Source: Bacteroidia bacterium (lineage in GTDB: Bacteria > Bacteroidota > Bacteroidia > Bacteroidales > UBA932). Taken from it: 64,000 bases of DNA. A program made the translations under genes and the position numbers. The notes under the pieces are model-generated. The model made no database searches and was not told the DNA's origin. It saw nothing but the letters and a program-made list of their open reading frames with translations. Shown here piece after piece: positions 476 through 24,692 of this stretch; position 1 is the first letter of the stretch, and each line of letters begins with the position of its first letter. The stretch covers positions 381 to 64,380 of the forward strand of contig JAUNNZ010000007.1 of the NCBI GenBank assembly GCA_030537315.1. The letters run 5' to 3'.

Positions 476-2821
476 CTATATGTCACGTTCCTGATATTCA
501 AACACGGTATTTCCAATGCGGAACTTGCGTCCGCGATAAAGCCTGATTTTCTTCCCGGCCGCCAATGCCCGATTATTGACCGTTATGCCGTCTTCAACGG
601 CGAACAGGTAAAGGGCGCCGTTGACCATCTTTATTTCAGCTTTCTTCGGGCCGATGCCCGGAGAGACATCCCAGGACATCTCAAGTGTGCAGTCAATGGA
701 CTTACCTATTGTGACAACTGTATTCGGATTCGATGCAAACCACTTGTAAAGAGCGATGTCCATTTCCTTTATCGCACCGCTAGCGTGAAGGAAGAACCGC
801 TCGGAACGTGGCTCTGCGTGTGCAAGGCCGATGGCAATACCGATTGCAAATATCTCAAAAGTATAAACCATATATGGCCTGTAATCCAATGAGAGCCGGA
901 ACGAGAAGAATGACCATAAGAACATGGTGCCCACGCAAATGGCAACAACCACGAAAAGTGAACGGGCATTTATCTTGAAATTCGTTCCATATGACGAACA
1001 GAGGGCTACCACTACGCCGGACAATGTCCATGGTATCCAGTCAATGATGATCGAATTGCTCTGAAGATTCAACAGGATATCCGCGACCGTAGCCAGAAAG
1101 AAGAGCAAAGAAGCACATATACCGGCAATACCCGACCTTGCCAGGATACCCAGCAGTCTTGCATGATGGCCACGACGCCGCACCGACACGAAGCAGAACG
1201 CCATCGTAAGTATGAATATCATTATGAATGCGAACGACGGCAGCAACAGCGGGATATGTTCGATGGACACGTTGAGTTTTTCGGATATTGAGTGAATCAC
1301 ACGGCTGTCGAAGCCTTTGTATGCCGTAAGATACAGTACCCATACAAGCAATCCCCCAAGGACAGCCACGACGACCCATTTAAGATAGTATGGGGCGTTG
1401 CGTATGTCGAACCTGTTCTCCTTGTTGTAATAATGCGCACCATGCCTGCAATTCCTGCCATACTCCGGACAGTGATAATCATTTTCCTCCCAACAGCTCA
1501 TATGCATCGTATGTTCGCATCTTGCGACGACTTCGTCACCGGCCGCATACGGAGCCTTGCAATAGTAACAGGTGTCGCCGACAAGTACTCCCGATATGCT
1601 CATATTGGCATCAGTATATCTTCCCGTATATTTCTTTTTGAATCGTTTATACTGGATCGCCGGAATCAGCAACTGGCACACCAGGTAAAAGAGGAAAAGA
1701 ATCGCCATTGTGAAGATAATGCCCCTGGCAAGCATCACATCGGTAGGAGATGGGTTGACCAATATCGGCTTGAAGAAACTTCCCATCACTATCCCCGTGG
1801 ATCCGGAAGCTACTTTTTCTCCATTGTGATAACAATCGATCACCAATGTTTTTCCGAATCCTGAATACATCTTGTGGTCAGGGTTCTCGAACACGAACCG
1901 ATAATCGGTGTAATCGATATGAAGCTTCTTGAAAATCTCATTTTCAATCTTCACCCAGTCGAACCCATCGAAGATGTTGCCTCCGGTGTTCCGGCAGATG
2001 GTACTCAGGAACGGATACGCATCGTGCTGTTCCTCCGCAGCGACAAGATCGCCGAAAATATCGACAAAATACATCAGATGATGCGCATCGGTGCGCATCG
2101 ACTTGTCCAGAAGTTCTGTTTTTATCTTGAAATAGTTGTCGTCAATCGCGAATCCGTCATCATAGAACACTTTGCCATCAGAAAGGACAAGTAAAACACG
2201 CTCCGAAACATCTGAGAAAGGACCGTTCTGATCGGAAAGGAGATTGAGACCGCGGGAAATCGAACTGTACAGGCGTTTTTCCTCCGTATCAACCGATTTG
2301 AAATAATTATCAAGGACGTATTCAGACGGAGCCATTATCCCACTTGTCTCATATTTCCTTGAAATGAAGGCGACATAAAGGTTGTTGTTAGTGAAAAGGG
2401 TGCTCATTTCCTCCACGGCTGCACGCTCCTTGTCAACCATATCCTGAGGCAGGGTGAGATCCACAAGCACAAGCATCTTCATGTTCAAGGCAACGACCTG
2501 AGCCGCGCCTGTACGCTGAACATCCACCAGATCCGGCTGGGCACCCTGGAACGAAGGACGCCCGAGATAATCAAGTTCCACAACGTCATAAACGACGTCC
2601 GGACTGACCAAAGAGACAGAGCCTATGCTCTGGGCAACCCTTGTATCAACCGTGAATGTCTTGTAATCATCCGAGAAAATAACATCGGTGACTTCAAGCG
2701 TTTTCTTTTCTTTCCCAGTGGAAGCCGGTAAAATATCCTCCAATGGGTTATTGACATTGGCGCATCCTGCCACTGTCAGAAGTGGCACGACGGACAGCAA
2801 TATGCGCCGTATGAATTTCAT
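476..2821 (-). CDS. Membrane protein: lipoprotein signal + vWA + TM + RING-like zinc finger + about 6 TM + degenerate FHA (putative E3 ligase)
   Basis: Lipobox TVAGC; vWA strands MLVLVDLT and LLVLSDG; CYYC-x13-CEHTMHMSC-x7-CPEYGRNC; seven hydrophobic segments; C-terminal VTIGK...IRLYRGRKFRIGNTVFEY FHA-like fold. Confidence 0.75.
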   Translation of the reverse strand: MKFIRRILLSVVPLLTVAGCANVNNPLEDILPASTGKEKKTLEVTDVIFSDDYKTFTVDTRVAQSIGSVSLVSPDVVYDVVELDYLGRPSFQGAQPDLVDVQRTGAAQVVALNMKMLVLVDLTLPQDMVDKERAAVEEMSTLFTNNNLYVAFISRKYETSGIMAPSEYVLDNYFKSVDTEEKRLYSSISRGLNLLSDQNGPFSDVSERVLLVLSDGKVFYDDGFAIDDNYFKIKTELLDKSMRTDAHHLMYFVDIFGDLVAAEEQHDAYPFLSTICRNTGGNIFDGFDWVKIENEIFKKLHIDYTDYRFVFENPDHKMYSGFGKTLVIDCYHNGEKVASGSTGIVMGSFFKPILVNPSPTDVMLARGIIFTMAILFLFYLVCQLLIPAIQYKRFKKKYTGRYTDANMSISGVLVGDTCYYCKAPYAAGDEVVARCEHTMHMSCWEENDYHCPEYGRNCRHGAHYYNKENRFDIRNAPYYLKWVVVAVLGGLLVWVLYLTAYKGFDSRVIHSISEKLNVSIEHIPLLLPSFAFIMIFILTMAFCFVSVRRRGHHARLLGILARSGIAGICASLLFFLATVADILLNLQSNSIIIDWIPWTLSGVVVALCSSYGTNFKINARSLFVVVAICVGTMFLWSFFSFRLSLDYRPYMVYTFEIFAIGIAIGLAHAEPRSERFFLHASGAIKEMDIALYKWFASNPNTVVTIGKSIDCTLEMSWDVSPGIGPKKAEIKMVNGALYLFAVEDGITVNNRALAAGKKIRLYRGRKFRIGNTVFEYQERDI

Positions 2822-2860
2822 ATGATATAAATAAAGTTACTCAATAATCCTGGCCACCTG

Positions 2861-3745
2861 TCAAATGCACGGGTAGTCATCATCTTTCTTGCCAAGACCT
2901 TCCATCATCTGCTTCGCATTCTCCTTCAGTTGCTTCGCTGCTTTCAGTTTCGACTGCATCATTGAAATGAACATCAGCACCACGGCAACAGCGGCAAGAC
3001 CAAGAAGATAATCCTTTATTCTCTGGATAAAAGGCTTGTAGGCAGCTTCCTGAATCTTAGCCGACGTATTCTTTATGACGATGAAGTGGTCTTCCAACTT
3101 ATCCATTTCAGGCTGAAGTGACGGTACAAGTTCAACCGCCGCCTTCGCCTTGTCGTATTTCTCTTGAATTTCAGCGAACAGCAACTGTTCCTTTCCTTTC
3201 AGCTTCTCAAGTTCGCTCTGGGTCCTTTGTGACATTGAAAGGGCATTGGCCTGCTTGAACATCCTGATGTACAGCGAATCCTGCGACTCTATATAACCGA
3301 CGGATTCCCTGAATTCCGTCTGCGCATCCATCTTTGATTTCAGTTCTGTCATCGCTGCGACCAGAGCCTCGTCGACCTGGCCATAATCGGCAACCTCCTG
3401 CATCAGTCTTTCGTGGTCGGCAATGAAACCCTGATAAGATTGATAATATGTATTCCAGCGGAGCTTCGCTGAATTGTAACGCCTGTTAATATCAGGGTAG
3501 ACATCACTCGGTGCTCCAGGAATTGCATCCGAGATCTCCTCCAGTTCAGAAATGAATGCCCGTATCTTTCTGCTTACCTGCAGCAGCATCTGCCTGTCTT
3601 CCATATCGATGGTTGCGGGAGAAGCCGCAGGGGCAGGGGCAGTAGCCGGTGCAGTGGAGGCGGAAGCATCCTGCGCAAAAGCCGAAGTCCCTGCCGTTGC
3701 AAGAAGCAACAGCACAGATAACAAATATTTCTTTAAAACTGTCAT
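2861..3745 (-). CDS. Exported helical protein with C-terminal TM anchor and Lys-rich tail, unknown function
   Basis: Signal peptide ending AFA-Q; Ala/Pro linker; coiled-coil-like body; TM YLLGLAAVAVVLMFISMM; ATGA overlap with the upstream gene. Confidence 0.8.
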   Translation of the reverse strand: MTVLKKYLLSVLLLLATAGTSAFAQDASASTAPATAPAPAASPATIDMEDRQMLLQVSRKIRAFISELEEISDAIPGAPSDVYPDINRRYNSAKLRWNTYYQSYQGFIADHERLMQEVADYGQVDEALVAAMTELKSKMDAQTEFRESVGYIESQDSLYIRMFKQANALSMSQRTQSELEKLKGKEQLLFAEIQEKYDKAKAAVELVPSLQPEMDKLEDHFIVIKNTSAKIQEAAYKPFIQRIKDYLLGLAAVAVVLMFISMMQSKLKAAKQLKENAKQMMEGLGKKDDDYPCI

Positions 3746-4842
3746 TTTATAATCTGCCTGCTATAATTTGCCGCCTTCTGGAAGATGGAATAAGCCCTTC
3801 TCTGCTCGGCATCAACAAGTCCGTTTGTCTTGACCATATTCTCGATGTCAGCAATCATATCTTCATTCTCCGACGCCATGTCGCGCCGCTCGACAGGATC
3901 ATCCGAAAGCAGCCATTTGGACACATTGCCGTCTATTACCCTCGCGGTCTTGAGCAGAAGCGAGGCATCCACGCCAAGTTTCTTCGGCGTATAGACACAT
4001 TTCATCACCGCCACCGAATCGACGAAATCATTGTAAACGTTCCATATATTCTGCAGGGCGGTGCAGGATGTTGTTATATCCTTGTGGACAAACTGGGACA
4101 TAACAGCCTGTTTCAACTGTGCAAAGACATCTGCTAATTCCTGAGAATCGGCAACGCCGCCTTTCGAGTTTTCCTTCAGGGCATTATAATTCTGGAACAG
4201 ATTTTCCAATGTGGTGTTGGCCGCGGATATCTCCTCATCCTTCCCGAAGCACGGGTTATGACCGATCGTTATATTGTACCGCGTCTGCAAGTCCTTCCCA
4301 GTCATGATCTCTTGTCCTTCAAGCAGATAAATATCCCGCAACGTCACACTGACATTGTTCCCGGGAAGGACATCGAACACCTGTTCGATATAGTCATTGA
4401 CCATCTGGAATTCCGTAGGCTGCGGCTGCAGGCCCTTGTATTCAACCCATTTGTTGAAAATATATTTGGAACGCGGAGACTTGATCGTCCTGATGAGCTC
4501 CTTGCTGAAACGGAACTTGGATTTCGGCTCTGCGTTTATCACATACGGGAACTTGTCCGGGATAATCCTGCCGAAGAAATTGATGATGGACTGATATCTC
4601 ACCGGCTCGCGGAATACGAACAGACTGCGATATGAAATCACGCTCAAGGTAAGAGTGTTCTTCTCTTCGCTGTACTGGAATTTCACCATCACATCGGTGT
4701 CTCTCGAGTCCTGCTTAAGCGCGATATGGTCGGTATATGATTCTTCATTGCTGACATATATATCCTTGACGCTCTGTCCCTTCACCATCGTGCCGGACAG
4801 CAGCATCAATCCAAGAATAACTGCTTTACTTGAAATTCTCAT
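3742..4842 (-). CDS. Exported hypothetical protein of the T6SS/Ubl operon
   Basis: Likely start MRISSK at 4842, 4 nt after the E2 stop; signal peptide; beta-rich N-half and helical C-half. Confidence 0.75.
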   Translation of the reverse strand: MRISSKAVILGLMLLSGTMVKGQSVKDIYVSNEESYTDHIALKQDSRDTDVMVKFQYSEEKNTLTLSVISYRSLFVFREPVRYQSIINFFGRIIPDKFPYVINAEPKSKFRFSKELIRTIKSPRSKYIFNKWVEYKGLQPQPTEFQMVNDYIEQVFDVLPGNNVSVTLRDIYLLEGQEIMTGKDLQTRYNITIGHNPCFGKDEEISAANTTLENLFQNYNALKENSKGGVADSQELADVFAQLKQAVMSQFVHKDITTSCTALQNIWNVYNDFVDSVAVMKCVYTPKKLGVDASLLLKTARVIDGNVSKWLLSDDPVERRDMASENEDMIADIENMVKTNGLVDAEQRRAYSIFQKAANYSRQIIK

Positions 4843-4846
4843 ACAG

Positions 4847-5401
4847 TTAAAAATAAATCCATTCATTCGGTTCACCCTGGCGGATGACCCAGGCCGCCAC
4901 CTGCTGGTCTTCAGGATATGGCGGCTCATTCACAGCGTGATAACGTTCGTACCGCAAATATTCTTCTATCCTTCCTATGCCCCAGGCCAGGCTCGTATAG
5001 CTGCTGAACCTGTTCAGGCAAACATGCCCTGCCATCTTGCCGAACCACCTTATGTTCGGATGCCAGGGATGGGCTATCGGTGTCCCATCGGCGGCAGAGG
5101 TCAGGAACCTGAATTCCGCTGGCGCATCAACACAAGGGAACTCTTCAGGCAAATCTATGCAAAGCAGGAAGCTGTCAGCGAACAGAGGTGGATTCTGAAC
5201 GCCGGGCATTCCAAGCGCCTCAACGTTCTCCACTCCGCAGATACTGCGTATGTGGTACTCCACTTCGTAGCGCGTGGGCATCCCGGCCGCGTTATGAAGC
5301 AGCGGCCGGCAGATGACATCACCACGACCGTCGAACTGTTTGCCGATCTCCTGCCATTCAATCAGCAGACGCCTGTCTCTCCCCTTCAGATCCATAGACA
5401 C
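4847..5401 (-). CDS. Ubiquitin-conjugating enzyme E2-like protein (UBC fold)
   Basis: N-terminal RRLLIEW helix, IDLPEEFP..DAPAEFRF, and HPWHPNI-x7-GHVCL matching the UBC HPN-I...G.ICL active-site signature (Cys codon 5020-5018). Confidence 0.88.
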   Translation of the reverse strand: MSMDLKGRDRRLLIEWQEIGKQFDGRGDVICRPLLHNAAGMPTRYEVEYHIRSICGVENVEALGMPGVQNPPLFADSFLLCIDLPEEFPCVDAPAEFRFLTSAADGTPIAHPWHPNIRWFGKMAGHVCLNRFSSYTSLAWGIGRIEEYLRYERYHAVNEPPYPEDQQVAAWVIRQGEPNEWIYF

Positions 5402-5731: not shown

Positions 5732-7414
5732 TTATGACTCTGAAAGGATGATCTTCAACCTTATCGGATATATGCCGGCACTGCGCACAAACAGGCCTTT
5801 CTCTATCCTGGAGGCCACTAAGACAGGGTCCTGGCCCAGGCTCCTGCGCACGAAAGTATTGTCTTTCAGGGTGATTGCAACATTTATCTGGTATCCGCAG
5901 TCACGCGTGTCCGTCTGTTCACGATGAATCCGGATTGATTTTATCATATTCTGACCCAAGCCGTAACGTACAGAAAGTTCCGTAACACAGAACAGCCTGA
6001 TGTCGGCGGGAGTCACGATGCGGCTGTTGGTCGCAAGATAGAGCGACGCCATTTCAGGATAGTCGGAGACATTTAGCTCATCCCTGCCCGGGACGGGTGG
6101 GGCGAGAAGATGCACGCTTCCCGGGTCTATACCCAGCGGCGCAGAGAAGGCAACATCACCTTCAAGTGACGGGTTGACCGCAGCGCCGTCCGTTATGAGA
6201 TACTGAACATCAATATTGACTTCGGTCTTATGTCCCACAGGGCCCTGTCGCAGAATAAGGTACGTACCGGATGCGCGCCCCTCCCCGTCACGGGCCGCAA
6301 CGTTGAGCATCTTGTCCACCAGTCCGTTCACAGCCTGGATTGTCTTGTCGCCATTCCTTGAATGGATATCCTGGAAGGCATAAAAATCAGACGAGAACTT
6401 GGCGGAAAGGCTTGTGAGCAATCGGACCAGGCTGCTCCGGTTGAAACGGTCCGCAGCAACTTTCCGCACCTGGACGATACAGTTATGGAAAACCAATTCC
6501 GTCGAAGGACGCATCATCTGCAGGAACTGGCAGGACTCCCCGCCGACACGTGAGAAAGGTGCGCTTGACGAAAGGCTCGTCTCCTGAATGGATGCATTCA
6601 CAAGAATGGCCGGATTGAGTACCAGATTATCCTTGTCCATAGGATAATCGACAGGTATGCCTTCGAATTCAAACTCCAGTTCTATAAGTCCTTTCTCAGC
6701 ATATCCGTATTCCTGAGGGTCGTGCTCCTCAACGGTAAAAAGGCATACATTGTGTGAATTGAACATATCCATCACACCGACGGAATTGTCATACGCCTGA
6801 CTTCTGTTGAAAAGCATCGTATCAAGGGAGAATGCGTCACTGAACGGGAGGTTGGCCGGTTCCCAAGGCTTTGAGATCAGGAGCTGCTTTCCTCCACAAT
6901 ATATCTTCAGATTCGAGAAACCGGAATCCTTCACCACGAAAGAGAATCCGCTCAGATCCTCCACGTTGTCCAGGAACTTCAAGGCCACCTTCCACCTTCT
7001 TCCATCCAGCCTGACAACGGATTGGACGTGAGAGTTGAACGCACGCGTCTTCAAAAGGGGAATGAACTTGAAATCGGTGCCCTCGATGGTAAAAACGGAG
7101 CCGGAATTCAATTCCACCTCATTGATGTTGTCGCTCAACTTCATCGAGACCAGAATGTTGGCCGGCTCGGCGTGCCCCGCCATATACGGCAGCACGGCCT
7201 GGGTATATTCATCTATGACATCACCCTTGAGCCGCTCTATCTCGGCATCTATCTCGTTGGCCTGATAGGCCATCGCTATCATAAGCAGATTGAAGACAGG
7301 GTCATTCTCCAGACCTTCAAGATAGTCGCTCTGGTCGCTCTGGCGCCAGATGTTCATCGCTTCCTTGAGAAGGTCCTCGGCTCGCTGCCTCGTTTCAAAC
7401 GTTGTTTTCTTCAT
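5732..7414 (-). CDS. tssF: T6SS baseplate subunit TssF (Bacteroidota type, divergent)
   Basis: N-terminal W....LE..ENDPVFNLL..AMAY and C-terminal TNSRIVTPADIRLFC motifs typical of T6SSiii TssF; 560 aa; context. Confidence 0.8.
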   Translation of the reverse strand: MKKTTFETRQRAEDLLKEAMNIWRQSDQSDYLEGLENDPVFNLLMIAMAYQANEIDAEIERLKGDVIDEYTQAVLPYMAGHAEPANILVSMKLSDNINEVELNSGSVFTIEGTDFKFIPLLKTRAFNSHVQSVVRLDGRRWKVALKFLDNVEDLSGFSFVVKDSGFSNLKIYCGGKQLLISKPWEPANLPFSDAFSLDTMLFNRSQAYDNSVGVMDMFNSHNVCLFTVEEHDPQEYGYAEKGLIELEFEFEGIPVDYPMDKDNLVLNPAILVNASIQETSLSSSAPFSRVGGESCQFLQMMRPSTELVFHNCIVQVRKVAADRFNRSSLVRLLTSLSAKFSSDFYAFQDIHSRNGDKTIQAVNGLVDKMLNVAARDGEGRASGTYLILRQGPVGHKTEVNIDVQYLITDGAAVNPSLEGDVAFSAPLGIDPGSVHLLAPPVPGRDELNVSDYPEMASLYLATNSRIVTPADIRLFCVTELSVRYGLGQNMIKSIRIHREQTDTRDCGYQINVAITLKDNTFVRRSLGQDPVLVASRIEKGLFVRSAGIYPIRLKIILSES

Positions 7415-7430: not shown

Positions 7431-7889
7431 TCAGTTCCATACCATTATTCGCTTGTGGAACTGGTAGTCCTCGCCTGTTTCAATTATGATACCTGTCACC
7501 ACTATGTGGATCGCACGCTCCTCCCTCATATATGTCATAGCCACCTTCAATTCGCCAAGACGTTTTTCAACCCTGGCTATCGCCGACTTCAATTCAGACG
7601 CGAAAGTGTTGAAATTCCTGGAGTTACCGGAAATTTTCTTTTCATATATGCTTGTGTCCAGAAGAGGAGTGATGTCCTCCTCCCCAACGTCAAGCACAAC
7701 ACCTTCCTTCTCGTCTATCTGCTCGAAACGCAGGTTCGAAAGGACAAAGCCGAACTTCGGATCTATAGGATTGCTGAACAGAGGCGTGGATATCACAAGC
7801 GATATCGATTCGTCAATCGCCTCCTTCAGGTTCTTGTGCCGGACGAACTTCCCGTCCTTTATGGTAAGTGGCAGAGACAGGTCTCCCAT
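7431..7889 (-). CDS. tssE: T6SS baseplate subunit TssE (gp25/GPW family)
   Basis: SISLVIST...DPKFG.....FE and SAIARVEKRL gp25-like motifs; 152 aa. Confidence 0.82.
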   Translation of the reverse strand: MGDLSLPLTIKDGKFVRHKNLKEAIDESISLVISTPLFSNPIDPKFGFVLSNLRFEQIDEKEGVVLDVGEEDITPLLDTSIYEKKISGNSRNFNTFASELKSAIARVEKRLGELKVAMTYMREERAIHIVVTGIIIETGEDYQFHKRIMVWN

Positions 7890-7892: not shown

Positions 7893-9029
7893 CTAGATCA
7901 AAGGTGTATATACGTCCTCCTCAACCTTAGGCGGCACGAACAATGCATCATAGAGCGACTGGTAGAGTGAGGAGAACAATTTCTGCTCAAGTTCAGTGTT
8001 CAGCTCAACGCCAAGGTCGTCGTGCAGTTTCCTGCGGAACTCGCCGCTGATGAAATCCTGCAGCGCCTCGGAAATCTGAGCCTGCATCTCTTCACGGAGC
8101 GCTTCCATCTTTTCCTGGACGCTTTGTGTCAGCTCCGGTTGGAGAGTCTCATATAATTCCTTCCTCAACTGTTCGCGGAGGGCGTCCACGTCAATCGTGC
8201 TGTCCTTGACCTCCACTCCGTCCAGGACAACGGCCGCCCTGCCAAGATAATCGTCCAGCCACTTCAGCCACAGCTGGACATCATACAGTGAACTTTCAGG
8301 TATCTCCTCGTGCTCTTCTGTATTCGGGTCCAAGACATAATATTTGACTGAGTTTGCTATTTCAGCAGTAAGGAGGATGAACTCATCGACCCTTATCTCA
8401 GGCCTGAGGCTCTTCAACAGAAGCATATTCTGGAGCATTGCACGCTTCATATCTCCAGAAGAAAGATTTTTATGTCCGGATACGGCCTCCATCTTCCCTC
8501 TCAACGATTCGCAGGCCACTGCAAAGCGAGGGTCTGAAACCATCTGCATACACGGGACTATGTATTCCCTGTCAAGAGATATCTCTCCGTCTTTAACGGA
8601 AAAGCGCATCAACGGCAGTTCATCACACTTGCCCAGTTCAGAGAAGCTTCGAATTTGATATACATACTCCGGCCGTGACATAGGCACGGTATCGCGTTCG
8701 AATTCAACAACTTCCTGTCCTATTCCCACGGTGAGGTAATGAAGTCCGTCACTCAAGTCCCCTATCTGGATTGAAGACCGGTCCTCCACATCTATCATCC
8801 TGCCTGATGGAAGCAGCGCCGTGCAACCGTCAACCTCGAATTCAAAAGACTTCCTGACGAAAGCTCCCTCGCATTTGAAATGCTCATTGGGCAATATGCC
8901 CACGCGAGAGCCGAATGCGGAACGCAGCAATGCCAGATCCCTGGCATCAGACTCTTTTGACAACGCCTTGAGAGCCTCCGCAGTTATCTCCATTCCAGGT
9001 TTCCAATTGATTCGGGAATTAATATCCAT
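7893..9029 (-). CDS. tssK: TssK-like baseplate protein with a helical C-terminal region
   Basis: N-terminal INWKPGMEI and YIVPC motifs as in T6SSiii TssK; lies between tssG and tssE. Confidence 0.7.
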   Translation of the reverse strand: MDINSRINWKPGMEITAEALKALSKESDARDLALLRSAFGSRVGILPNEHFKCEGAFVRKSFEFEVDGCTALLPSGRMIDVEDRSSIQIGDLSDGLHYLTVGIGQEVVEFERDTVPMSRPEYVYQIRSFSELGKCDELPLMRFSVKDGEISLDREYIVPCMQMVSDPRFAVACESLRGKMEAVSGHKNLSSGDMKRAMLQNMLLLKSLRPEIRVDEFILLTAEIANSVKYYVLDPNTEEHEEIPESSLYDVQLWLKWLDDYLGRAAVVLDGVEVKDSTIDVDALREQLRKELYETLQPELTQSVQEKMEALREEMQAQISEALQDFISGEFRRKLHDDLGVELNTELEQKLFSSLYQSLYDALFVPPKVEEDVYTPLI

Positions 9030-9040: not shown

Positions 9041-9826
9041 TTAATCAAGTTCAATGTTGTAATCAAGTATCATTTTCCCTCCTTCGACTCCGTCACCGGA
9101 CTTCTGCCTGATTGCAAAACGGCAGACAGTATCCACAGGGATGAACCATTCGAGGAGGAAGTTGCAGAACGGCTTTATTTCAGCTGCCATCCTGCCGTAT
9201 TCCTCCACATCAAGGCCATCGACAAGCAAGTCATACCTTACCATAGGGAGCCAGCTTACAGTTGTATCCGTGCCGCTGAAACGTCCTCGCGACATTTTTA
9301 CCGGACAGCCCAGCACTGATTTCATCAGTTCGCGGATGAACACGAAATCTCCCCTCTTCTTGCTGACATAAGGAAGAATATAGGCTGCCTCACGGATATA
9401 CGGGTCGGTATTCTCATCCACCTCCACTCCATAATATCTGCTGAGTATAAAGTCCATCTTGTCCTCCAGAAGTTCAGACACCGTCCTCTCAATCCGGAGT
9501 TTTTTCCGGAAGTTGAAGGAATCTATAGGCAGGAACGCTTCCATCAGCAGATGGTTGCGCTTCTTCATAGCTTCATACTTTCCTTTGACCTCCTTTCCCT
9601 TCAGTTCTTCCTCCCTCGTGATGACACCCTGTGGAAGGAGTTTCAGGAAACCGTCCCGCGCCAGGGTCACCTCTGCCGTCTCGGGATCGACAGCAAGCGT
9701 ATCGTCGTTGTAATTCCGATAGAACGTGCCCTCGTGTCTCGCCACCCACTTGTCTTCAAGCTCAGGGTAGAGATAGTTCAAGAGCATCTCAGCGCTTATT
9801 TCCTTCAGATCCGATCTTAATTCCAT
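9041..9826 (-). CDS. tssG: T6SS baseplate subunit TssG (Bacteroidota type)
   Basis: GTFYRNYNDD, LARDGFLKLLPQG, FLPID and WFIP motifs; context. Confidence 0.75.
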   Translation of the reverse strand: MELRSDLKEISAEMLLNYLYPELEDKWVARHEGTFYRNYNDDTLAVDPETAEVTLARDGFLKLLPQGVITREEELKGKEVKGKYEAMKKRNHLLMEAFLPIDSFNFRKKLRIERTVSELLEDKMDFILSRYYGVEVDENTDPYIREAAYILPYVSKKRGDFVFIRELMKSVLGCPVKMSRGRFSGTDTTVSWLPMVRYDLLVDGLDVEEYGRMAAEIKPFCNFLLEWFIPVDTVCRFAIRQKSGDGVEGGKMILDYNIELD

Positions 9827-15658: not shown

Positions 15659-17461
15659 TTACTCGTCCTTGAGGAGCACCTGTTTAGGTGCTGCTTCCTC
15701 AGTTATCTTCTGTGACAGTTTCGCTGATGAAGGGGCTCCAGGGACCGCGATACCGTCACTTATATTCGTTGACTTGAAGGACTTGGACGCCTCGAGGTTG
15801 TCCGCGGTCAGTTTAGGCGCTTTCACATCTGCCTTGAACTCGGTCTTGCCGTTGACAGTGGCATCGCCGAACACGGCGGTCTTGCCGCCGCCTATGGAAA
15901 GATTGCCGCCATCGAGCTGGACCGTAGCCTTGTCCTGCTGAATTTCCGCAGTTGTCTTTGCAATGACTCCTATCTTCTCGGACGCCATCTGAATCTGTTT
16001 GCTCTTGTTCTTGTCTTTCTCAAGAGATCCGACATACATCTTTTCGGAAAGCAGGACCATTGTACTGCCGGCAGAAAGTTCCTTCTCTTCCAGACTATCC
16101 TTGCCCACATCCATCGACTTGATTCCGATTGCCTTTGCATTTATGTTGACATTGCCGTCACATTTGCCTTCCGGAGTCGTTGCAAGAACAGATACATTCT
16201 CGGCACGAAGAAGCACGCTTCCATTCTTGGTAAGGGCTTTTTCTTTAATCTGATCCTCCTTTACCTCATAATCCACTGCGGCAATGGAGATGTCCTTGGA
16301 CAAAAGTCGCATAGTACCCTCGGCCTGGAAATCAGTATTGCCTTTATCCGGTTTCGAGTTGGCCGTCGAGAGCGTGATATTCTCGGAAGAGGCGGTAATG
16401 CCGCTGTCCTTGATCAGTGTTCCGTCAGACTTCAGTGATGCGAAATTGACGCGTTTTGCATTGACGCTGAAACCAGCGGCATCGCTCTCCCTGATATTAC
16501 CGTCTCCATCAACGGAATTGACAGATATAATCTCTGAATTCAGCAGAAGTTTCGAGCCGGTGCTTTCCTTTTCGAAATTGGTCTTTTCCGAATCAAGCAA
16601 TTTCTTGGTTTCTTCCAAAGAAGCCAATGCCCTGTTCTTTTCCGCAAGCGCCGACATCCCGTGAAGATATGAGGTCAACGCATCGAAAAGGGACATCGTC
16701 AGAGACTCATACGATTCTTGAATCTCCAAGAGGTCGTCCTTATTGGCAAAAACGTTCTCCATCGCATCATTCTTCCCCTCTGTAGAATCAAGAAGTTTCT
16801 GTATGTCGGAAATAATGGAGTTGACGGTTGACTTGCTCTTGCCTACAATACTCTTCAATTCCTTCTGTTCATCCTTGAGGCTTTTCTCCTCCTCGGCAAG
16901 CGCTTCCGAATGCCTGGCATTCGACCTGGTCGCATCCACTACGATTCCACTGTCGGCGTGTATCAGTACGCCTGTTCCACTTGCGGAGGACAATGGCTGG
17001 GAGAAATATCCGTTTTCGTCACTTGACTGGATAATGATGCTCCTGGCCTGGTTGACTATCTGGGAGTTCGGACTGACCACATTCTCAAAACCATCGATTC
17101 CCGAATCAACAGCAACATTTATTATATTGGTTGCCCTGTTGGTGATTGATCCGCCTGCAGTGTTTCCTGCTCTGCCCACGCCATTGGTTTCAACATCATT
17201 CGCCCTGATGGTGACCTTCGAGAACGGGCCGTCACTCCACAGGTCCCCGGACATATCGACGTTGCCGATGACGATTTCCGGAGCGGAGATGACAATACGG
17301 CGGTCATCACGGATATATTTGCCGGCGCTGATGTCGTTGAGGATCTCCTTCTTCATCCTCTGCACCTCTTCCTTCTGTTTGCGGACTTCCTCCACATCCT
17401 TTTCGAGGCTGTTCTGCAGCTTTTCAATCGCCTTGAGCCAATCTTTGAAAATGTAATCCAT
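15659..17461 (-). CDS. Hypothetical protein with coiled coils and spike-like beta-strand repeats
   Basis: Repeated h-x-h-x-A/S-x-x-I-x-h units (VTIRANDV, FSVNAKRV, VLLRAENV, VNINAKAI, IQMASEKI); stop is 2 nt from the PAAR start. Confidence 0.7.
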   Translation of the reverse strand: MDYIFKDWLKAIEKLQNSLEKDVEEVRKQKEEVQRMKKEILNDISAGKYIRDDRRIVISAPEIVIGNVDMSGDLWSDGPFSKVTIRANDVETNGVGRAGNTAGGSITNRATNIINVAVDSGIDGFENVVSPNSQIVNQARSIIIQSSDENGYFSQPLSSASGTGVLIHADSGIVVDATRSNARHSEALAEEEKSLKDEQKELKSIVGKSKSTVNSIISDIQKLLDSTEGKNDAMENVFANKDDLLEIQESYESLTMSLFDALTSYLHGMSALAEKNRALASLEETKKLLDSEKTNFEKESTGSKLLLNSEIISVNSVDGDGNIRESDAAGFSVNAKRVNFASLKSDGTLIKDSGITASSENITLSTANSKPDKGNTDFQAEGTMRLLSKDISIAAVDYEVKEDQIKEKALTKNGSVLLRAENVSVLATTPEGKCDGNVNINAKAIGIKSMDVGKDSLEEKELSAGSTMVLLSEKMYVGSLEKDKNKSKQIQMASEKIGVIAKTTAEIQQDKATVQLDGGNLSIGGGKTAVFGDATVNGKTEFKADVKAPKLTADNLEASKSFKSTNISDGIAVPGAPSSAKLSQKITEEAAPKQVLLKDE

Positions 17462-17477: not shown

Positions 17478-18812
17478 TTATCTGCCTTTCCTGGCCTTCA
17501 TCTGTATCTGAACATCCGTCAGATCGTTGCCATAAGGCTTTACATATATGGTTTCTTCCCTGTAACCTTCTTTTCTGAGTTTGATTTTGTAATTCTGCCG
17601 TCCAGGCAGGCCCTGGACTATGCAAGGCACCACGCCTTTCGGCTCGTCATTGACATACACTTCGGCACCGATGACATTCGAATGAATGCTGAGGGTCGCG
17701 AAGTCGGCCTCTGGCGGAGCCATACTCAGTGAAACGGGGCTGGAATCCTCTATCCTGAGGAACTGCACCCGTGATTCCACACCGGAACGCCTTGTGTTGA
17801 CTGCATAAAAACCTTCCGGAAGTTTTCCAGACCATTTGCCGAAACCGACAGATTCCCTGTTGATGAGAATCTCCATATCGGACTGCGGGGCGGTTATTTC
17901 CACGTCAGCGGAAATTTCAACCTTTACCGGCTGACTGCCGGATGCCGAGCGGGCTTCCTCTGAAAGCCCCCACCTGCTTTTCTGCCAGAAAAGGGAGGCA
18001 TCGTGCTCCTTGTCAAGTTGGACCGTTTTCTTCTCGGCCTCGCCGATTTCCACATCGGCATCATAATAGTATATGCCTTTCCACAAAACCGTCAGACGAT
18101 GACGGCCGGGGGTGATACGCCCCGTTGTGACCTCCCCCCTGCCAAGATATTCCCGGTCAAGATACACCTCTGAGTCCTGATCGTCCGGCCTGACAGTGAT
18201 ATAGCTGTAAAAAGGCTGAAGAGTTATATTCTGTTCTTCCTTCCCCGTGTCAGTCAGCGTAACGCTGTCGCACACCGACGAATGGAACGGGGCTTCCACC
18301 TTATATTTATGCGTGCCGATCGGCAAGTAGAACTGCGCCTTGCCGTCACGGACCAGGGTCGTGGTGGAATCGACCGATACAATGGCATCTTCGGGCCATA
18401 CGTTGAAGGTAAGCCATTGCCTGGACAGTTTGAACAGCTTGTCCGGGCTGTAAGTTGCAAGATATGCGGAATAGTGCTTGAAGCGCTTCAATTTGACAGG
18501 CGCTTTCCATATGCACTGTCCGAAGTCAGGATGTTTTATGACAAGATAGGAAGTCTTGTGAGGGGCGATGACCCTGACCACACCATCATCCTCCTGCGGT
18601 TCGATTGGATTTTTGCCGTCGGCAAGGAAAGTGAACCCGCTTTCCCCCGTTTTGAAATCTATGATTGCGCCTGATTTGTCAAGGTCGACCTTAAGGCCCG
18701 GCTGGGACGGCTTGTACTTGATAAAATCAAGAACCTCCATCTGCTGGGCGGCTGCGCCGGCGGCAGACAGAAGGCCCAGGGCAACGGCAATCCACAGCCT
18801 CAATCCGGACAT
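17478..18812 (-). CDS. Exported PEGA-domain protein
   Basis: Likely ATG at 18812 overlapping the upstream TGA; signal peptide ending AAA-QQ; several PEGA-like repeats (SNVIGAEVYVND...GVVP....L......IKLRKEGY). Confidence 0.8.
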   Translation of the reverse strand: MSGLRLWIAVALGLLSAAGAAAQQMEVLDFIKYKPSQPGLKVDLDKSGAIIDFKTGESGFTFLADGKNPIEPQEDDGVVRVIAPHKTSYLVIKHPDFGQCIWKAPVKLKRFKHYSAYLATYSPDKLFKLSRQWLTFNVWPEDAIVSVDSTTTLVRDGKAQFYLPIGTHKYKVEAPFHSSVCDSVTLTDTGKEEQNITLQPFYSYITVRPDDQDSEVYLDREYLGRGEVTTGRITPGRHRLTVLWKGIYYYDADVEIGEAEKKTVQLDKEHDASLFWQKSRWGLSEEARSASGSQPVKVEISADVEITAPQSDMEILINRESVGFGKWSGKLPEGFYAVNTRRSGVESRVQFLRIEDSSPVSLSMAPPEADFATLSIHSNVIGAEVYVNDEPKGVVPCIVQGLPGRQNYKIKLRKEGYREETIYVKPYGNDLTDVQIQMKARKGR

Positions 18813-19291
18813 CAGTCGCAATTGTGTATGATGTGCAATGACTTGTTGGAGTCAACTCCGAGGTATGTGATGGAGGACACCAGGATGCTGACGCATATGC
18901 TCTGCCTCAGCAGGCCGTCGTCAGGCGATGAACTTTTGTGGGTCTCATCGACATCAACCACATAGCCATAGACAACCATTCCGGCATCATATCCCTTCAG
19001 CTTCGAGTTCTCGTCGAAAGTCGCATCGAACAGAAATGAGAACGGGCAGCGTGAGTTCTGCTGAAGTCTTTCATAAAAGACCTTCCCACAGTCGGCGGAA
19101 GCCGATTTGACGGAAAGGTTCAATACGACTGAAAGTGTCGAGCCGAAAGGAACTCCCGTTTCATCACGGGAGCGTTCGCACTTGTAATCAAAATGCTGTA
19201 CGGTAAGGAAACTATCCCTGGTTATGGCGGCCGCACTCATCGTGACATCATCCGCCACAATCAACGCCTTGTAATGATTAGACAATAACAT
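18812..19291 (-). CDS. Divergent Hcp/TssD-like tube protein
   Basis: Likely start MLLSNH at 19291; FDYKCERSRDETGVP and GYVVDVDE resemble the TssD pattern; fourth gene of the tandem set. Confidence 0.55.
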   Translation of the reverse strand: MLLSNHYKALIVADDVTMSAAAITRDSFLTVQHFDYKCERSRDETGVPFGSTLSVVLNLSVKSASADCGKVFYERLQQNSRCPFSFLFDATFDENSKLKGYDAGMVVYGYVVDVDETHKSSSPDDGLLRQSICVSILVSSITYLGVDSNKSLHIIHNCD

Positions 19292-19298
19292 AGACTTC

Positions 19299-19715
19299 TC
19301 AATCCTTCCTGTTTCTGAACTCGACAGAGTCAACCGTAATCTTTTCCGACACTATTTCAAGAATCAGCATCCTCCTGTAATGAGCGTCTTTATCATATAC
19401 TTCCTCCAGCGAAAGACAATGGGCATCCTCGAAAAGAATCTCCTTTGGATTTTCATCAATCTCCCCTGTCGGAGCCAGATTGACAATCAGACGGCCGCTC
19501 TGGACATAGCCGTTGGCATACCACTCATACAGTCCCAGGTCATTTTTCCCGGGAGCGACTACCTTGACGGTGATCTTGTCGCACCGCGCAATGCCTTCCG
19601 GACGGAAATGGTTGTAGCGCCGCAGGAAATGACAATTGCATTCCGCGACAAGGTACTCACTCGAATAGAGATGAGCACCGTTGTCGCCGAATTGCAATGA
19701 AGCCAACATTGACAT
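19299..19715 (-). CDS. Divergent Hcp/TssD-like tube protein
   Basis: KITVKV, LYEWY, KEILFEDAHCLSLEE and terminal VEF match the TssD pattern. Confidence 0.65.
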   Translation of the reverse strand: MSMLASLQFGDNGAHLYSSEYLVAECNCHFLRRYNHFRPEGIARCDKITVKVVAPGKNDLGLYEWYANGYVQSGRLIVNLAPTGEIDENPKEILFEDAHCLSLEEVYDKDAHYRRMLILEIVSEKITVDSVEFRNRKD

Positions 19716-19738: not shown

Positions 19739-20137
19739 TTATTTCCAAGGGTTGACGAACTCGATGGAGCCGTTCTTGAGAGACTTGCAAACGATTTTAA
19801 TCTCCTCATAGTGGCCAACGCCTTCCTCCCATTTCTCAATGTAGTGGGCGCAGTAGCAGTTCGTACCCTCGAGGGTTTTCATTGTGGAACCGTCGATGGT
19901 GTTGGCGAACACAATCTTGACGTCACGTGGATCTGTCGGGTTGAGCTTCCATCCAAGGAGCTGGTAGTTGCCGTCATTCAAAGCCTTGACGCGCACTGTG
20001 ATGAGTCCGCCGCGGGGATTGCCTGCGATCTGGCCTTCCACGTCAGTAGCCTGATTGAATCTGTAATCAACGAAGATTACCTCACGGTTGTCGAAGCCAT
20101 TGATCTGAAGCTCAACCGGAGTAATATTTTCTGCCAT
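19739..20137 (-). CDS. tssD: Hcp/TssD tube protein
   Basis: YRFNQATDVEGQ..G.PRGG.I.VRV, GW, YC..Y.E.W motifs; 132 aa. Confidence 0.88.
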   Translation of the reverse strand: MAENITPVELQINGFDNREVIFVDYRFNQATDVEGQIAGNPRGGLITVRVKALNDGNYQLLGWKLNPTDPRDVKIVFANTIDGSTMKTLEGTNCYCAHYIEKWEEGVGHYEEIKIVCKSLKNGSIEFVNPWK

Positions 20138-20165
20138 AATTGATTTTCTTTAAATGTTCAAAAAA

Positions 20166-20558
20166 TTAAGCCCATTCATTGACAAACTCGACGTCGCCGA
20201 ATTTGATTTGCTTGCAAGTGATGACAATCTCCTCAAAATGTCCGATCTTGTCCTCCCATCTTTCCTGGAAGTCTACACAATAGCCCTTTGTGAACTTGAT
20301 TTCCTTCATCTTCTTTCCTGAGACTGTCTCAAAGAATGTGATGGTTCCGTCCTTAGGGAGGTTGCGCTCAACCATCCAGCCAAGAAGCTCGGGAGTACCG
20401 TCATTGAGGGCTTTTACGCGAATTTTAATTTTACCACCGCGGGGGATGCCGGAAAGCTGTCCATCGACATCCATTGTCTGATCGAATTCGTAAGTGACCA
20501 TCTGGACCTCACGCTCTTTGTAACCGTCGATCTCGATTTTAACAGGTGTTTTTGCCAT
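20166..20558 (-). CDS. tssD: Hcp/TssD tube protein
   Basis: YEFDQTMDVDGQ.SG.PRGGKI, GWM, KEIKF.KGYCVDFQE; paralogue of the neighbouring gene. Confidence 0.9.
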   Translation of the reverse strand: MAKTPVKIEIDGYKEREVQMVTYEFDQTMDVDGQLSGIPRGGKIKIRVKALNDGTPELLGWMVERNLPKDGTITFFETVSGKKMKEIKFTKGYCVDFQERWEDKIGHFEEIVITCKQIKFGDVEFVNEWA

Positions 20559-20608
20559 AATATAATAGCTTTAAGTTGTTGTTTTATATAACCTGACTTT
20601 GTCAAACC

Positions 20609-21964
20609 CTAAGCCACATCCGCGCTCTTGTCCTTCTTGTCGGCAGAGACCTTGATGACGAAGTTCTTTGCTGAATAGAACGGAGTGAGACTGATGTCGC
20701 AGGTGATGCGTTTGGTGACAGGGTCCTGCTGAGGCTCCTTGATCTCGTAATCCTGGAAGAGATTGCCATAGCCCTTGTAGTCGTTGAGGAAGGCCTGCAG
20801 CTTCGCCTTGAGGTTCTTAGGAGAGTTGTACGGATCCCAGTTCTCGAGAGCCACTTCGTGCACGTAGTTCATAAGCACCTTCTTGACCCAGTCAAAAACG
20901 CGTACGATAGGATATTCCTTCATTGCCGTAAGATCGCCGTTGTAGAGGGTGGCGTTGTTGAAAGCCATCACCCTGCCTTCGGAATAGACCATAGGAATGA
21001 CCTGGTTGTCCATAAGGGAAGCAATCTCTGACTTGAGGAGATCGAGCTTCACGCCCTTCACGCCGTCAAGGGTACCATATTTCTTGCCACCTGCGCCCTG
21101 AGCCATATTCGCACTCTCGTCATAAAGCTTTCCGCAGAGCGCGCCTGAAGGATAAACGTAGAACGCATTGGCATCAGCTTCATCCTCTGACATCTTCTCT
21201 GACTCGCGGCCTACAATCCAGTTGGCTGTCATAACCACGTTCATAAGTTCTGCATCGCTGTCCTTGTAGCTCTCAGTGTTGGCCTGGAGGTCATCGAATG
21301 AATATTCGTCAGCGTGGTCGGTGATAAGGAGCACCTTGTACTTGTAGGCAATCTTGGCCCACTGAAGAAGGGTCGGCTTGTCCTGGAACACGTTGCCAGG
21401 GATACATACAAGACTGTATGCGTCCTTGAGGCTCAAACGGTCGAAACCGTCGCGGAGGAGACCCTCCACTTCGCCGGCGAAGCCTGAATCAGGGTCTGCG
21501 ATGTCCTCCTTGAAAACATTGATGACGCGGAGGTTCTTCACCTTCTCGGCATTGGCTGACTTGAAGAATGCATCGAGCGAACGGTATGAGCGCTCGAGGT
21601 CCTTGGTGGCGAAGAGAGCATCGGTGATACCCTGCTTGAGGACAGCGGTATATTTGTCTTCCTTAGCCTTGCAGGCGTCGGTGAATTCCGTTGCACTGCC
21701 ATAGCCTTCGCCAAGGATTTCAATCCAACCCTTGAGGTCTTCTGCAAGCGAATCTCTCTTGTCCTTGAATCGCTTGTCGGTGAGGAACACCGATTTCGCG
21801 GCCTTGCGCGCAGGGTTCATATTGTCGGCGTCCGGAAGGAATCCGCGGACGGCATTGAAACCGCCGAAAGATGAAAGAAGGTTCGAGGTGTCTTTCGCAG
21901 CAGCCTTCACTTCACCCGCAGCCTGTTCAACGGCTACGCTTTTTTTCATTTCTGTATCTGCCAT
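20609..21964 (-). CDS. tssC: T6SS large sheath subunit TssC (DUF5458 family)
   Basis: NPARKAAK..FL, LERSYRSL..FF, DRLSLKD.YSLV.IPG, AQG.GG.KYG, YPIVRVFDWV.K motifs. Confidence 0.92.
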   Translation of the reverse strand: MADTEMKKSVAVEQAAGEVKAAAKDTSNLLSSFGGFNAVRGFLPDADNMNPARKAAKSVFLTDKRFKDKRDSLAEDLKGWIEILGEGYGSATEFTDACKAKEDKYTAVLKQGITDALFATKDLERSYRSLDAFFKSANAEKVKNLRVINVFKEDIADPDSGFAGEVEGLLRDGFDRLSLKDAYSLVCIPGNVFQDKPTLLQWAKIAYKYKVLLITDHADEYSFDDLQANTESYKDSDAELMNVVMTANWIVGRESEKMSEDEADANAFYVYPSGALCGKLYDESANMAQGAGGKKYGTLDGVKGVKLDLLKSEIASLMDNQVIPMVYSEGRVMAFNNATLYNGDLTAMKEYPIVRVFDWVKKVLMNYVHEVALENWDPYNSPKNLKAKLQAFLNDYKGYGNLFQDYEIKEPQQDPVTKRITCDISLTPFYSAKNFVIKVSADKKDKSADVA

Positions 21965-21981
21965 AGTATCGTTGTTTTTAA

Positions 21982-22446
21982 TTATTTCGCTGATTCGATT
22001 TCGGCAAGCATAGCTTCAAGCATCTCCTTGAGCTCGGCCCTTGAGGACTCATCCTTCAGGATTTCGCGGAGCTTGCGGTTCTGCTCGATGCTCTTGCGGA
22101 TCTTCACGTTGGTGTCAATCTTCTGCTTGACACCTGACAGGAATTCGCTATTCTCGACGAGACGGCCCTTTCCGCCGTTCGCCTCGAAATCACGGAGTTC
22201 ACCGAATTTGAGAGTCTCGCTCACTGAGCCACCTTCCTCATCGGTGAAGTCAACATTTACCTTCGGCTTGAAATGCGCGAAAGCATCTCCGATACTCTGG
22301 ATATCCTCGACAAGTTCAGGGTTGCCAGGCTCTGCATCAGAGGTAAACTGATCGACCATCAATGTCTTATTGCTGTCGATGGGGGAAACTTTGGCGTTGG
22401 ACTGCTCATCCGGTGCCATTGAGATAAAGTTCTCTTTCATTGCCAT
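21982..22446 (-). CDS. tssB: T6SS small sheath subunit TssB (Bacteroidota type)
   Basis: NKTL..DQFT, PELVE, FAHFKP.V.VDF.DEEG..V.E.L.F..L.DF motifs; precedes tssC. Confidence 0.9.
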   Translation of the reverse strand: MAMKENFISMAPDEQSNAKVSPIDSNKTLMVDQFTSDAEPGNPELVEDIQSIGDAFAHFKPKVNVDFTDEEGGSVSETLKFGELRDFEANGGKGRLVENSEFLSGVKQKIDTNVKIRKSIEQNRKLREILKDESSRAELKEMLEAMLAEIESAK

Positions 22447-22460
22447 AGTAACTGTGGTAT

Positions 22461-24692: not shown

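Follow-up and report, generated by a model that had tools for sequence, protein, structure and literature searches.

The locus described here raises the question of why the genes of a contractile injection machine are interleaved with those of a ubiquitin-like conjugation pathway, and what conjugation would do for the machine. It lies in a 64,000-nt stretch of the Bacteroidia bacterium assembly GCA_030537315.1 (contig JAUNNZ010000007.1, positions 381 to 64,380 of the forward strand), referred to below as the window, and consists of a type VI secretion system (T6SS) operon of ~24 kb that also encodes a ubiquitin-like protein (Ubl), an activating enzyme (E1), a conjugating enzyme (E2) and a RING-finger membrane protein, the predicted ligase (E3). 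The T6SS subtype with an integral E1-E2-RING-Ubl set is real and conserved, and it appears to be new in print. As to its function, we give a probability of about 50% to the proposal that it represents a fourth T6SS architecture, in which a membrane RING E3 would turn an envelope signal into Ubl attachment and so provide an on-demand version of the TssN beta-grasp docking site.

All 22 open reading frames (ORFs) of the operon are on the minus strand, and their order, gaps, overlaps and catalytic residues are as described in a first-pass annotation made from the sequence alone. The largest intergenic gap is 50 nt (tssC-hcp); the clpV-tssB, tssB-tssC and tssF-Ubl gaps are 14, 17 and 13 nt, and 39 nt separate the gene of the 294-aa protein from that of the RING protein. 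Overlaps of 1 nt are found at vgrG/E1, E1/tssG and Ubl/E2. Two larger apparent overlaps, between E2 and the 395-aa ORF (83 nt) and between hcp138 and the 173-aa ORF (35 nt), disappear with downstream Met starts at 4842 and 19291; Met30 of the 395-aa ORF is kept in 76/78 aligned rows.

Pfam and NCBIfam models identified ClpV, TssC, three Hcp proteins, a PEGA protein, a PAAR-like protein, an RRF-like protein, VgrG, the ThiF-fold E1, TssE and, weakly, TssK, and gave no match for TssF, TssG and TssB. The latter and other components, VgrG and ClpV among them, were identified by comparing profiles from related loci with the surroundings of canonical tssN or tssC genes (16 regions). Family hidden Markov models (HMMs) matched these regions with E values of 1e-22 (TssF), 1e-21 (TssG), 2e-11 (TssK), 1e-11 (TssE) and 4e-28 (TssB), and hhalign probabilities against the canonical proteins were 99.8% for TssF, 99.2% for TssG and 98.9% for TssK. 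The core set is complete (TssB/TssC, Hcp, VgrG, PAAR, TssE/F/G/K and ClpV) and, judged by these profiles, its genes are homologs of Bacteroidota T6SSiii genes. Most gene labels of the first-pass annotation were borne out by profile matches; the weak ones are the fourth hcp (hhalign 20%), the spike-like label of the 600-aa protein (an Atlas lead only) and the vWA label of the RING protein, for which Pfam matched 1/39 family members, namely a distant T6SS-free one, with no DxSxS motif and no full metal-ion-dependent adhesion site (MIDAS).

In ubiquitin-type conjugation, E1 adenylates the C-terminal Gly of the Ubl, forms a Cys thioester with it and passes it to the E2 Cys, and a RING protein scaffolds the transfer to lysine. 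The E2 of the window (184 aa) gave an AlphaFold2 (AF2) model with a predicted local distance difference test (pLDDT) score of 88.5, for which Foldseek gave 337 matches at E<=0.001, those listed (46 rows) being E2 entries throughout. A single-sequence search of the PDB with the E2 gave no match, and the E2 profile led to UBE2K (E 0.03). Its HPN motif (H114-P115-N116) and C128 are invariant in 63/63 rows. E1 keeps GxGxxG, K72, D116, the Zn ligands C156/C159/C249/H252 and C175 in 74-75 of 75 rows, and C175, invariant in 75/75, is the predicted catalytic Cys. The best PDB sequence matches of E1 are UBA7, UBA6 and UBA1, its best NCBIfam scores are those of ThiF/MoeB, all below cut-off, and PADLOC matches are confined to the adenylation stretch; the C-terminal domain had no significant PDB or Pfam match, including for a ubiquitin-fold domain. 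The AF2 model of the Ubl (pLDDT 88.9) is a beta-grasp with Z scores of about 10, and weak family matches among 58 Ubl members were to SUMO-like (49), ubiquitin (43) and YukD (33). The Ubl C-terminus is DP[FI]PG in 80/80 loci (DPFPG here), with a free single Gly rather than di-Gly; IAG is the ending of many of the more distant relatives, and in some of these relatives residues follow the Gly.

The RING protein combines a lipobox Cys (C20, 73/74), a periplasmic vWA-like region, one transmembrane helix (TM), a RING-H2-like finger, six further TMs and an FHA domain. The finger ligands C418, C421, C435, H437, H440, C443, C451 and C458 are invariant in 74/74 rows; Prok-RING_1 matches 37/39 family members, below cut-off, and FHA matches 23/39. 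From the predicted topology, the RING and FHA domains would be cytoplasmic. The ubiquitin-like set of Ubl, E1, E2 and RING protein proposed earlier thus stands, with a UBC-fold E2 model, a beta-grasp Ubl and invariant catalytic residues and RING ligands. The mean identity of the Ubl is 70%, versus 39-45% for the baseplate proteins, and median dN/dS values over hand-picked close pairs (6-12 usable of 13) were 0.035 for Ubl, 0.13 for E2, 0.14 for E1 and 0.13 for the RING protein. By these ratios, the set is under purifying selection.

To follow the linkage of these genes, we collected 182 E2 relatives in GTDB species genomes with an E2 profile; the forward counts cover the best 80 of the 182. 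Homolog titles place the family in Bacteroidales, mostly of rumen and gut origin among the best 80. A tss gene was present in 79/80 E2-found loci, the exception being a 2.7-kb contig. Where both genes were present, adjacency was found for E1-tssG in 72/74 loci, tssG-tssK in 76/76, tssK-tssE in 77/77, tssE-tssF in 78/78, tssF-Ubl in 79/79, Ubl-E2 in 80/80, E2-395aa in 79/79, 395aa-294aa in 72/72 and 294aa-RING in 71/71. The two loci lacking E1-tssG adjacency are rearranged and still have E1 within the cluster, and the vgrG, PAAR, PEGA and RRF-like genes vary in position across loci. The reverse test started from TssK, which detected 219 metagenome loci, and covered 80 of them (71 distinct); its TssK profile came from the E2-found loci, which makes it a test within the clade only. 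With enough flank, these loci had Ubl in 59/59, E2 in 57/57, E1 in 63/63 and the RING gene in 48/48. It had been asked earlier whether homologous T6SS loci usually lack E1, E2 and Ubl; within the lineage they carry them, and the 16 canonical T6SSiii regions gave 0 matches to the three.

An order-wide draw of 401 genomes, repeated under unchanged settings, contained nine with TssC, of which seven, scoring 729-770 bits, were without E2 and two, scoring 341-352 bits, both had E2. In a quick IQ-TREE analysis of TssC (35 rows, midpoint root), 22 rows from Ubl-type loci split from 13 canonical rows with an SH-aLRT of 100; the Ubl-type proteins are 33-40% identical to canonical T6SSiii TssC. The linkage counts describe one lineage, with probably a single origin, and its members are not independent of each other. 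On gene order and conservation, the E1/E2/Ubl/RING set belongs to this T6SS lineage as a constant component, interleaved with its other genes. Interleaving with baseplate genes (tssF-Ubl, E1-tssG), as opposed to mere neighbourhood, had been noted in the first-pass annotation.

The known T6SSiii membrane complex was not detected. Neither TssN nor TssR turned up in the organism's own genome (82% complete), in searches whose TssN positive controls worked, and HMMs of canonical TssN, TssP, TssR and four TssO/Q-like clusters had no match in that genome or in 83 loci. In a test of 50 of the 80 E2-found loci, TssN was over cut-off in 1/50 carrier genomes; tssC occurs twice in that genome, and one of its loci has the canonical order tssK-tssN-tssG. 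The canonical tssN site, between tssK and tssG, is empty. Four signal-peptide proteins are core to the lineage instead, namely the PEGA, 395-aa, 294-aa and RING proteins, and from their sequences they are candidates for a trans-envelope membrane complex. The 294-aa and RING proteins are fused in three loci (L007:11788-15057, L010:5666-8977 and L011:11719-14919) with consistent topology, the former lipoprotein signal becoming an internal TM and a YPTI motif being kept. Conserved cytoplasmic lysines are K422, K685 and K693 of the RING protein (each 74/74) and K271 in the tail of the 294-aa protein (60/67). Equating these proteins with known components failed: the RING-protein TM bundle matched that of TssN at 33-35% in hhalign (reversed control 16%), which we read as generic hydrophobicity, the vWA-like region matched TssR at 0.4%, and the 294- and 395-aa proteins matched TssO/P/Q-like clusters at under 1.2%. 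An Atlas structure search of the 395-aa protein gave no lead.

According to the accessible part of PMC10781749, TssNQOPR are essential, and TssK is recruited by the cytoplasmic domain of TssN, which is ubiquitin-like and resembles EccD (PDB 7B9F). The same EccD entry is the top Foldseek match of our Ubl model (EccD5, 7b9f_X, E 0.003) and ranks second in VIA (Z 10.1, root mean square deviation 2.6, 87 aligned); the VIA scores were 10.2 for talin F0, 10.1 and 9.8 for the EccD5 ubiquitin-like domain and 9.0-9.3 for ubiquitin variants. The partner of the canonical domain has also changed, as would be expected if the membrane partner of TssK had been exchanged: similarity to canonical TssK ends at residue 235 and is followed by a new C-terminal helical extension. 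Its tail carries P-x-[ILM] in 47/48 rows, as does that of the 294-aa protein in 66/67, against a background of 17/2019 genome ORFs (0.8%); canonical TssK proteins mostly end in W-x-[IL]-L-D. In the window, both tails read P-x-I. Ending alike in hydrophobic-P-x-[ILM], TssK and the 294-aa protein, which are unrelated, may bind to a common partner, for which the FHA domain is a candidate. A predicted TssK + Ubl complex scored 0.06 versus a mark of 0.32 and speaks neither way.

A lineage without TssN needs another docking site. We favour conjugation as the docking step because a free beta-grasp protein is encoded together with its predicted conjugation enzymes and a membrane RING protein, and the TssK tail is rebuilt. 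Also in favour are the two-way linkage and interleaving, the mutual exclusion of the set and the canonical membrane complex, the EccD-like fold of the Ubl, the four core envelope proteins, the strong conservation of the Ubl and the precedent of PpkA for such a layout. The RING/FHA protein and the three other envelope proteins would form a membrane E3 complex whose periplasmic parts sense a cue. By known enzymology, E1 would adenylate Gly105 of the Ubl and carry it as a thioester at C175 before transfer to C128 of E2, and the cytoplasmic RING would discharge it beside the inner membrane. Attached to a membrane-side or baseplate protein, the Ubl would create a docking site for baseplate assembly at the membrane and could take over from the fused beta-grasp of TssN the recruitment of TssK; K422, K685 and K693 of the RING protein and K271 of the 294-aa protein are candidate acceptors. 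The step is probably one-way, since this clade has no JAB. That conjugation builds or licenses the membrane docking site of the baseplate is possible, and we propose it tentatively. Among the roles suggested by the first-pass annotation, licensing at the membrane fits best, because TssN/O/P/Q/R are missing and four envelope proteins including the RING protein were gained; a reversible cap is disfavoured for this clade by the missing JAB (160 loci), and nothing specific pointed to marking of the sheath for ClpV.

Several observations weigh against this proposal. Its support consists of genes, predicted folds, conserved active-site residues, two-way linkage and undetected TssN/O/P/Q/R, and conjugation, control of the machine and the target are predicted. 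The EccD match of the Ubl concerns the fold only, is tied with talin F0 and lies within about 1 Z of ubiquitin. A detached TssN domain as the source of the Ubl gained no support from profile comparisons, which gave probabilities of 0.6% and 0.45%, equal to controls; the Ubl and the TssN C-domain can be aligned in register over 79 columns, at a level (Prob 0.45%, E 0.13) that controls reach as well. No TM-Ubl fusion was found among 79 profile matches checked by length, 32 of which were read. The last RING ligand pair is atypical (C451-x6-C458), the FHA domain is without the phospho-binding Arg in most rows (Lys in 56/74), and the E2 loop-4 Phe position is Cys/Ser. The module also exists without a T6SS, in genome G050, where it must serve a purpose independent of such a machine. 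Most of the genomes, moreover, are incomplete metagenome-assembled genomes, the organism's own being 82% complete.

Two relatives bear on the origin of the module. In genome G233 (locus L149, G233:C65), sister to the rest in the TssC tree, a T6SS is accompanied by E1, E2, Ubl and RING genes, by counterparts of the 395- and 294-aa genes and by a membrane JAB, with effector-like genes after PAAR (a 795-aa ORF containing HExxH, and small ORFs, between PAAR and Ubl). Genome G050, 96% complete and without TssC, encodes E1, E2, a membrane JAB and a Ubl that continues past the Gly. It also has a vWA/Prok-RING_1 protein that is 23% identical to the RING protein of the window, and the set adjoins SrfB- and SrfC-family genes. 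In the window's clade, two JAB queries found none in 160 loci; the operon has none, and the only weak match in the organism's own genome is, by reading, a RadC-like ORF. Prok-JAB was over cut-off somewhere in the genome in 12/53 genomes, gene position having been looked at for G050 alone. On sequence grounds, the Ubl is probably a descendant of stand-alone conjugation operons and not of TssN. The simplest reading would be that a membrane ubiquitin system, at first independent, was united with a T6SS, and that JAB was lost later in the window's clade; a Ubl with an exposed Gly needs no JAB for maturation.

The spike and cargo genes are relevant to other explanations. VgrG residues 861-1110, with 6-13% identity among 14 rows, are the hypervariable part of the cluster; the extension (10962-12400, residues about 830-1190) ends in a conserved motif and has no obvious adjacent immunity gene, and no Pfam family was found in nine VgrG extensions tested. 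Among 160 loci scanned, with 7-10 kb flanks, no variable toxin-immunity pair was found inside the cluster except in the divergent G233, and the gaps within the other clusters are filled by envelope or regulatory genes that recur between loci. Conserved lysines are numerous in the 600-aa protein; K389, K433 and K563 are kept in 31/31 rows.

These lysines, together with the position of E1 directly 3' of vgrG in the window, would suit conjugation of the Ubl to VgrG, the 600-aa protein or Hcp, where it would help to assemble the spike or tube, mark cargo for loading or serve as a cap, comparable with Bil, which acts on a phage tail protein, and the lambdoid tail Ubl. We consider this unlikely, as the fixed neighbour of E1 is tssG and not vgrG, the E3 is membrane-bound, the loss of TssNOPQR is left unexplained, and a JAB that could remove a cap is absent from the 160 loci. 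Marking of the contracted sheath, a stalled baseplate or membrane parts for disassembly by ClpV or for proteolysis is improbable: canonical T6SSiii recycles by ClpV without a Ubl, and this explanation, too, leaves the missing membrane complex unaccounted for, but a one-way tag without JAB suits degradation and ClpV is in the operon. A membrane RING with a Ubl also resembles eukaryotic membrane-protein quality control.

A slight chance remains for an envelope-surveillance or defence module that recruited a contractile tail as its output, conjugation firing a machine aimed at the cell's own envelope or an invader and exporting no toxins to neighbours, which we rate as less probable than spike or cargo tagging and more probable than turnover. 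The T6SS-free relative beside SrfB/SrfC-family genes and the lack of variable toxin-immunity cassettes in 160 loci (G233 excepted) agree with it, and the bacterial E1-E2 systems in the accessible parts of PMC10557695 and PMC11601596 are anti-phage or presumed so. The complete T6SS core with ClpV, TssK and PAAR, the variable VgrG extension and the effector-like genes of G233 argue against such a role, and remote effectors could lie beyond the 7-10 kb flanks. Finally, it is very improbable that the ubiquitin genes and the T6SS travel together and work independently, or that the ThiF/Ubl pair is a sulfur carrier. The ThiF/MoeB scores of E1 (under cut-off) and the module standing alone in G050 could be read in this way; interleaving, overlaps, full two-way linkage across several families and a cognate E2 and RING speak against independence, and no sulfur-pathway genes occur in the loci.

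We compared the system proposed here, with its membrane-licensed docking, with known ones. It shares with the Bacteroidota T6SSiii, as described in the accessible parts of PMC10781749 and PMC4714493, a homologous sheath, Hcp, VgrG, TssE/F/G/K and ClpV, and is further alike in a baseplate thought to dock on a beta-grasp and in an envelope set with a vWA-type lipoprotein and helical periplasmic proteins. It differs in its separate TssC clade, in undetected TssN/O/P/Q/R, in the added Ubl, E1, E2, membrane RING, PEGA, RRF-like and 600-aa genes, in the rebuilt TssK C-terminus and in showing no Rhs/immunity cassettes within the cluster. With PpkA-PppA-Fha1 it has in common the layout of a membrane enzyme, an external vWA or vWA-like domain and FHA, and, as predicted here, post-translational T6SS control. 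In P. aeruginosa, the membrane kinase PpkA, whose vWA domain lies outside, sets off H1-T6SS assembly via Fha1 (PMC3224232, accessible part). Here, RING replaces the kinase and FHA is in the same chain, mostly without the phospho-binding Arg.

Among conjugation systems, the eukaryote-like operon of Ca. Caldiarchaeum subterraneum (Ub, E1, E2, small RING and Rpn11; PMC5654768, in the part available) likewise has a stand-alone E1, an HPN/Cys E2 and a Ubl with C-terminal Gly, and its E3 is of the RING-H2 type, whereas here the RING-H2-like finger is part of a polytopic membrane FHA lipoprotein, a single Gly (PG) is exposed, Rpn11/JAB is absent and the set lies inside a T6SS. Bil, Bub and Cap2 are bacterial E1/E2 conjugation systems too, and Bil modifies a phage tail protein, T6SS being tail-derived; the accessible parts of PMC10557695 and PMC11601596 describe all three without a membrane RING or a contractile machine of their own. 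As described there, Bil has an IAD-AAD-CYS E1, the JAB BilC and no E3, Bub forms Tyr/Ser oxyesters and has BubE, and in Cap2 the E2 and E1 are fused and modify a cyclase (CD-NTase), in contrast to the single-ThiF-domain 378-aa E1, separate Cys-type E2, RING and missing JAB found here. The E2-E1 or JAB-E1 fusions of Bub and CBASS Cap2 systems are likewise not a feature of the window's operon. The lambdoid TAPI (Ubl)/TAPK (JAB) pair shares a conserved-Gly Ubl inside a tail-assembly cluster and, in the part of PMC1779556 available, is of the ThiS/MoaD type, without E1/E2/E3, in a non-contractile phage tail.

Bacterial Ubl/E1/E2/JAB/RING operons (Prok-RING_1) were reportedly predicted by Burroughs, Iyer and Aravind in 2011. 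The present family resembles them in its Prok-RING_1 match (37/39), and the G050 operon is a complete set with JAB. We know of no T6SS link for these operons. They are cited as rare examples of RING-type E3s in the accessible part of PMC10557695. Full-text searches combining T6SS or contractile injection with ubiquitin systems found no paper; the claim that no described T6SS has its own E1-E2-E3-Ubl set therefore holds for the open full text searched, subscription papers being outside it, and Burroughs 2011 may list these proteins. In its accessible part, Coyne 2016 (PMC4714493) does not contain the word 'ubiquitin' and mentions an unclassified T6SS in Prevotella stercorea. Three T6SS architectures are listed in the part of PMC10942478 available.

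If the proposal is true, this would be the first bacterial RING-E3 ubiquitination pathway that assembles a cell's own nanomachine, and a third, unrelated way of anchoring a T6SS in the envelope. Bacterial ubiquitin-type conjugation would gain a role beyond anti-phage defence, and a bacterial RING E3 would have a nameable substrate set and, in sheath foci and Hcp release, a readout. Cultured carriers exist, which opens the question to direct tests: Xylanibacter ruminicola D31d, Prevotella sp. ne3005 and Bacteroides mediterraneensis An793, the last having both T6SS types. One cultured strain, G273, has both a canonical T6SSiii and a ubiquitin-type T6SS (L052/L137, L090/L136). A typical locus, L065, is on a contig labelled Oscillospiraceae, which is probably a mis-binned Bacteroidales contig or a transfer. 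No E2 relatives were found in viral contigs.

Table 1. Genes of the T6SS operon, in order of transcription (window positions)
Feature	Position	Strand	Basis
ClpV/TssH AAA+ ATPase, 743 aa	22461..24692	-	TIGR03345 and AAA families; family HMM matches canonical ClpV in 9 loci
TssB sheath small subunit	21982..22446	-	match of the family HMM to canonical TssB, E 4e-28
TssC sheath large subunit, divergent	20609..21964	-	PF17541, 341 bits vs 729-770 canonical; separate clade in tree
Hcp/TssD 1	20166..20558	-	PF17642, E 6e-29
Hcp/TssD 2	19739..20137	-	PF17642, E 3e-20
Hcp/TssD 3	19299..19715	-	PF17642, E 2e-11
Possible fourth, divergent Hcp-like protein, likely start 19291	18812..19333	-	no Pfam match; hhalign to canonical Hcp 20%, E 0.001
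PEGA-repeat envelope protein, signal peptide	17478..18821	-	PF08308; found in 57/83 loci
600-aa protein, possibly gp5/VgrG-spike-like, coiled-coil insert	15659..17461	-	Atlas structure lead, TM 0.32/0.57 to gp5-C clusters
PAAR-like (DUF4280) spike tip	15270..15656	-	PF14107, E 2e-31; IglG model
RRF-like protein	14541..15257	-	PF01765, E 1.5e-10
VgrG/TssI with ~350-aa variable C-terminal extension (candidate payload)	10962..14534	-	PF04717, TIGR01646
E1, ThiF-fold adenylation domain	9826..10962	-	PF00899
TssG baseplate	9041..9826	-	hhalign 99.2%
TssK	7893..9029	-	residues 4-235 alone match canonical TssK
TssE (gp25-like)	7431..7889	-	PF04965; canonical-region profile match
TssF baseplate	5732..7414	-	hhalign 99.8%
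Ubl, 105 aa	5401..5718	-	AF2 model, beta-grasp
E2, UBC fold	4847..5401	-	AF2 model, Foldseek
395-aa envelope protein, signal peptide	3742..4842	-	no known family
294-aa protein: signal peptide, predicted periplasmic coiled coil, C-terminal TM (247-265), Lys-rich cytoplasmic tail	2861..3745	-	
RING protein, 781 aa, predicted membrane E3	476..2821	-	lipoprotein/vWA-like/TM/RING-H2-like/six TMs/FHA

The T6SS-free operon of G050 (L127/L128, G050:C685:1548-18543 and 23000-27000) reads E1-Ubl-E2-TM-JAB(membrane)-vWA/RING-orf-SrfB-orf-SrfC, and further Ubl- and JAB-containing genes lie downstream; it may be a membrane ubiquitin system that has not been described before and is linked to genes of the SrfABC family. 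Other distant Ubl relatives (P0276, P0278, P0284, P0294 and P0303) are tandem repeats or are fused to a TIR-like domain (by reading) or to E2, which suggests use in other conflict systems.

The RRF-like gene, a core gene present in 54/83 loci, is the least conserved of the locus (31% mean identity). A 320-330-aa signal-peptide protein with no Pfam family recurs near PAAR in Prevotella-type loci (L078:1889-2875 and about 20 others), and in 9 metagenome loci tssB and tssC are separated by an AraC-like gene of 184 aa. The organism was absent from the three raw-read RNA runs looked at; an RNA-library contig set contained short, near-identical pieces over the Ubl, E2 and 395-aa genes and also over the neighbouring cell-division region. 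The locus lies just upstream of mraZ and the cell-division cluster, and no mobile-element genes were noticed in positions 1-32000. Flanking lipoprotein genes on the same strand are a BACON gene (59-469), not conserved and 6 nt downstream of the operon, and two genes that are fimbrillin-like by reading (24822-27151).

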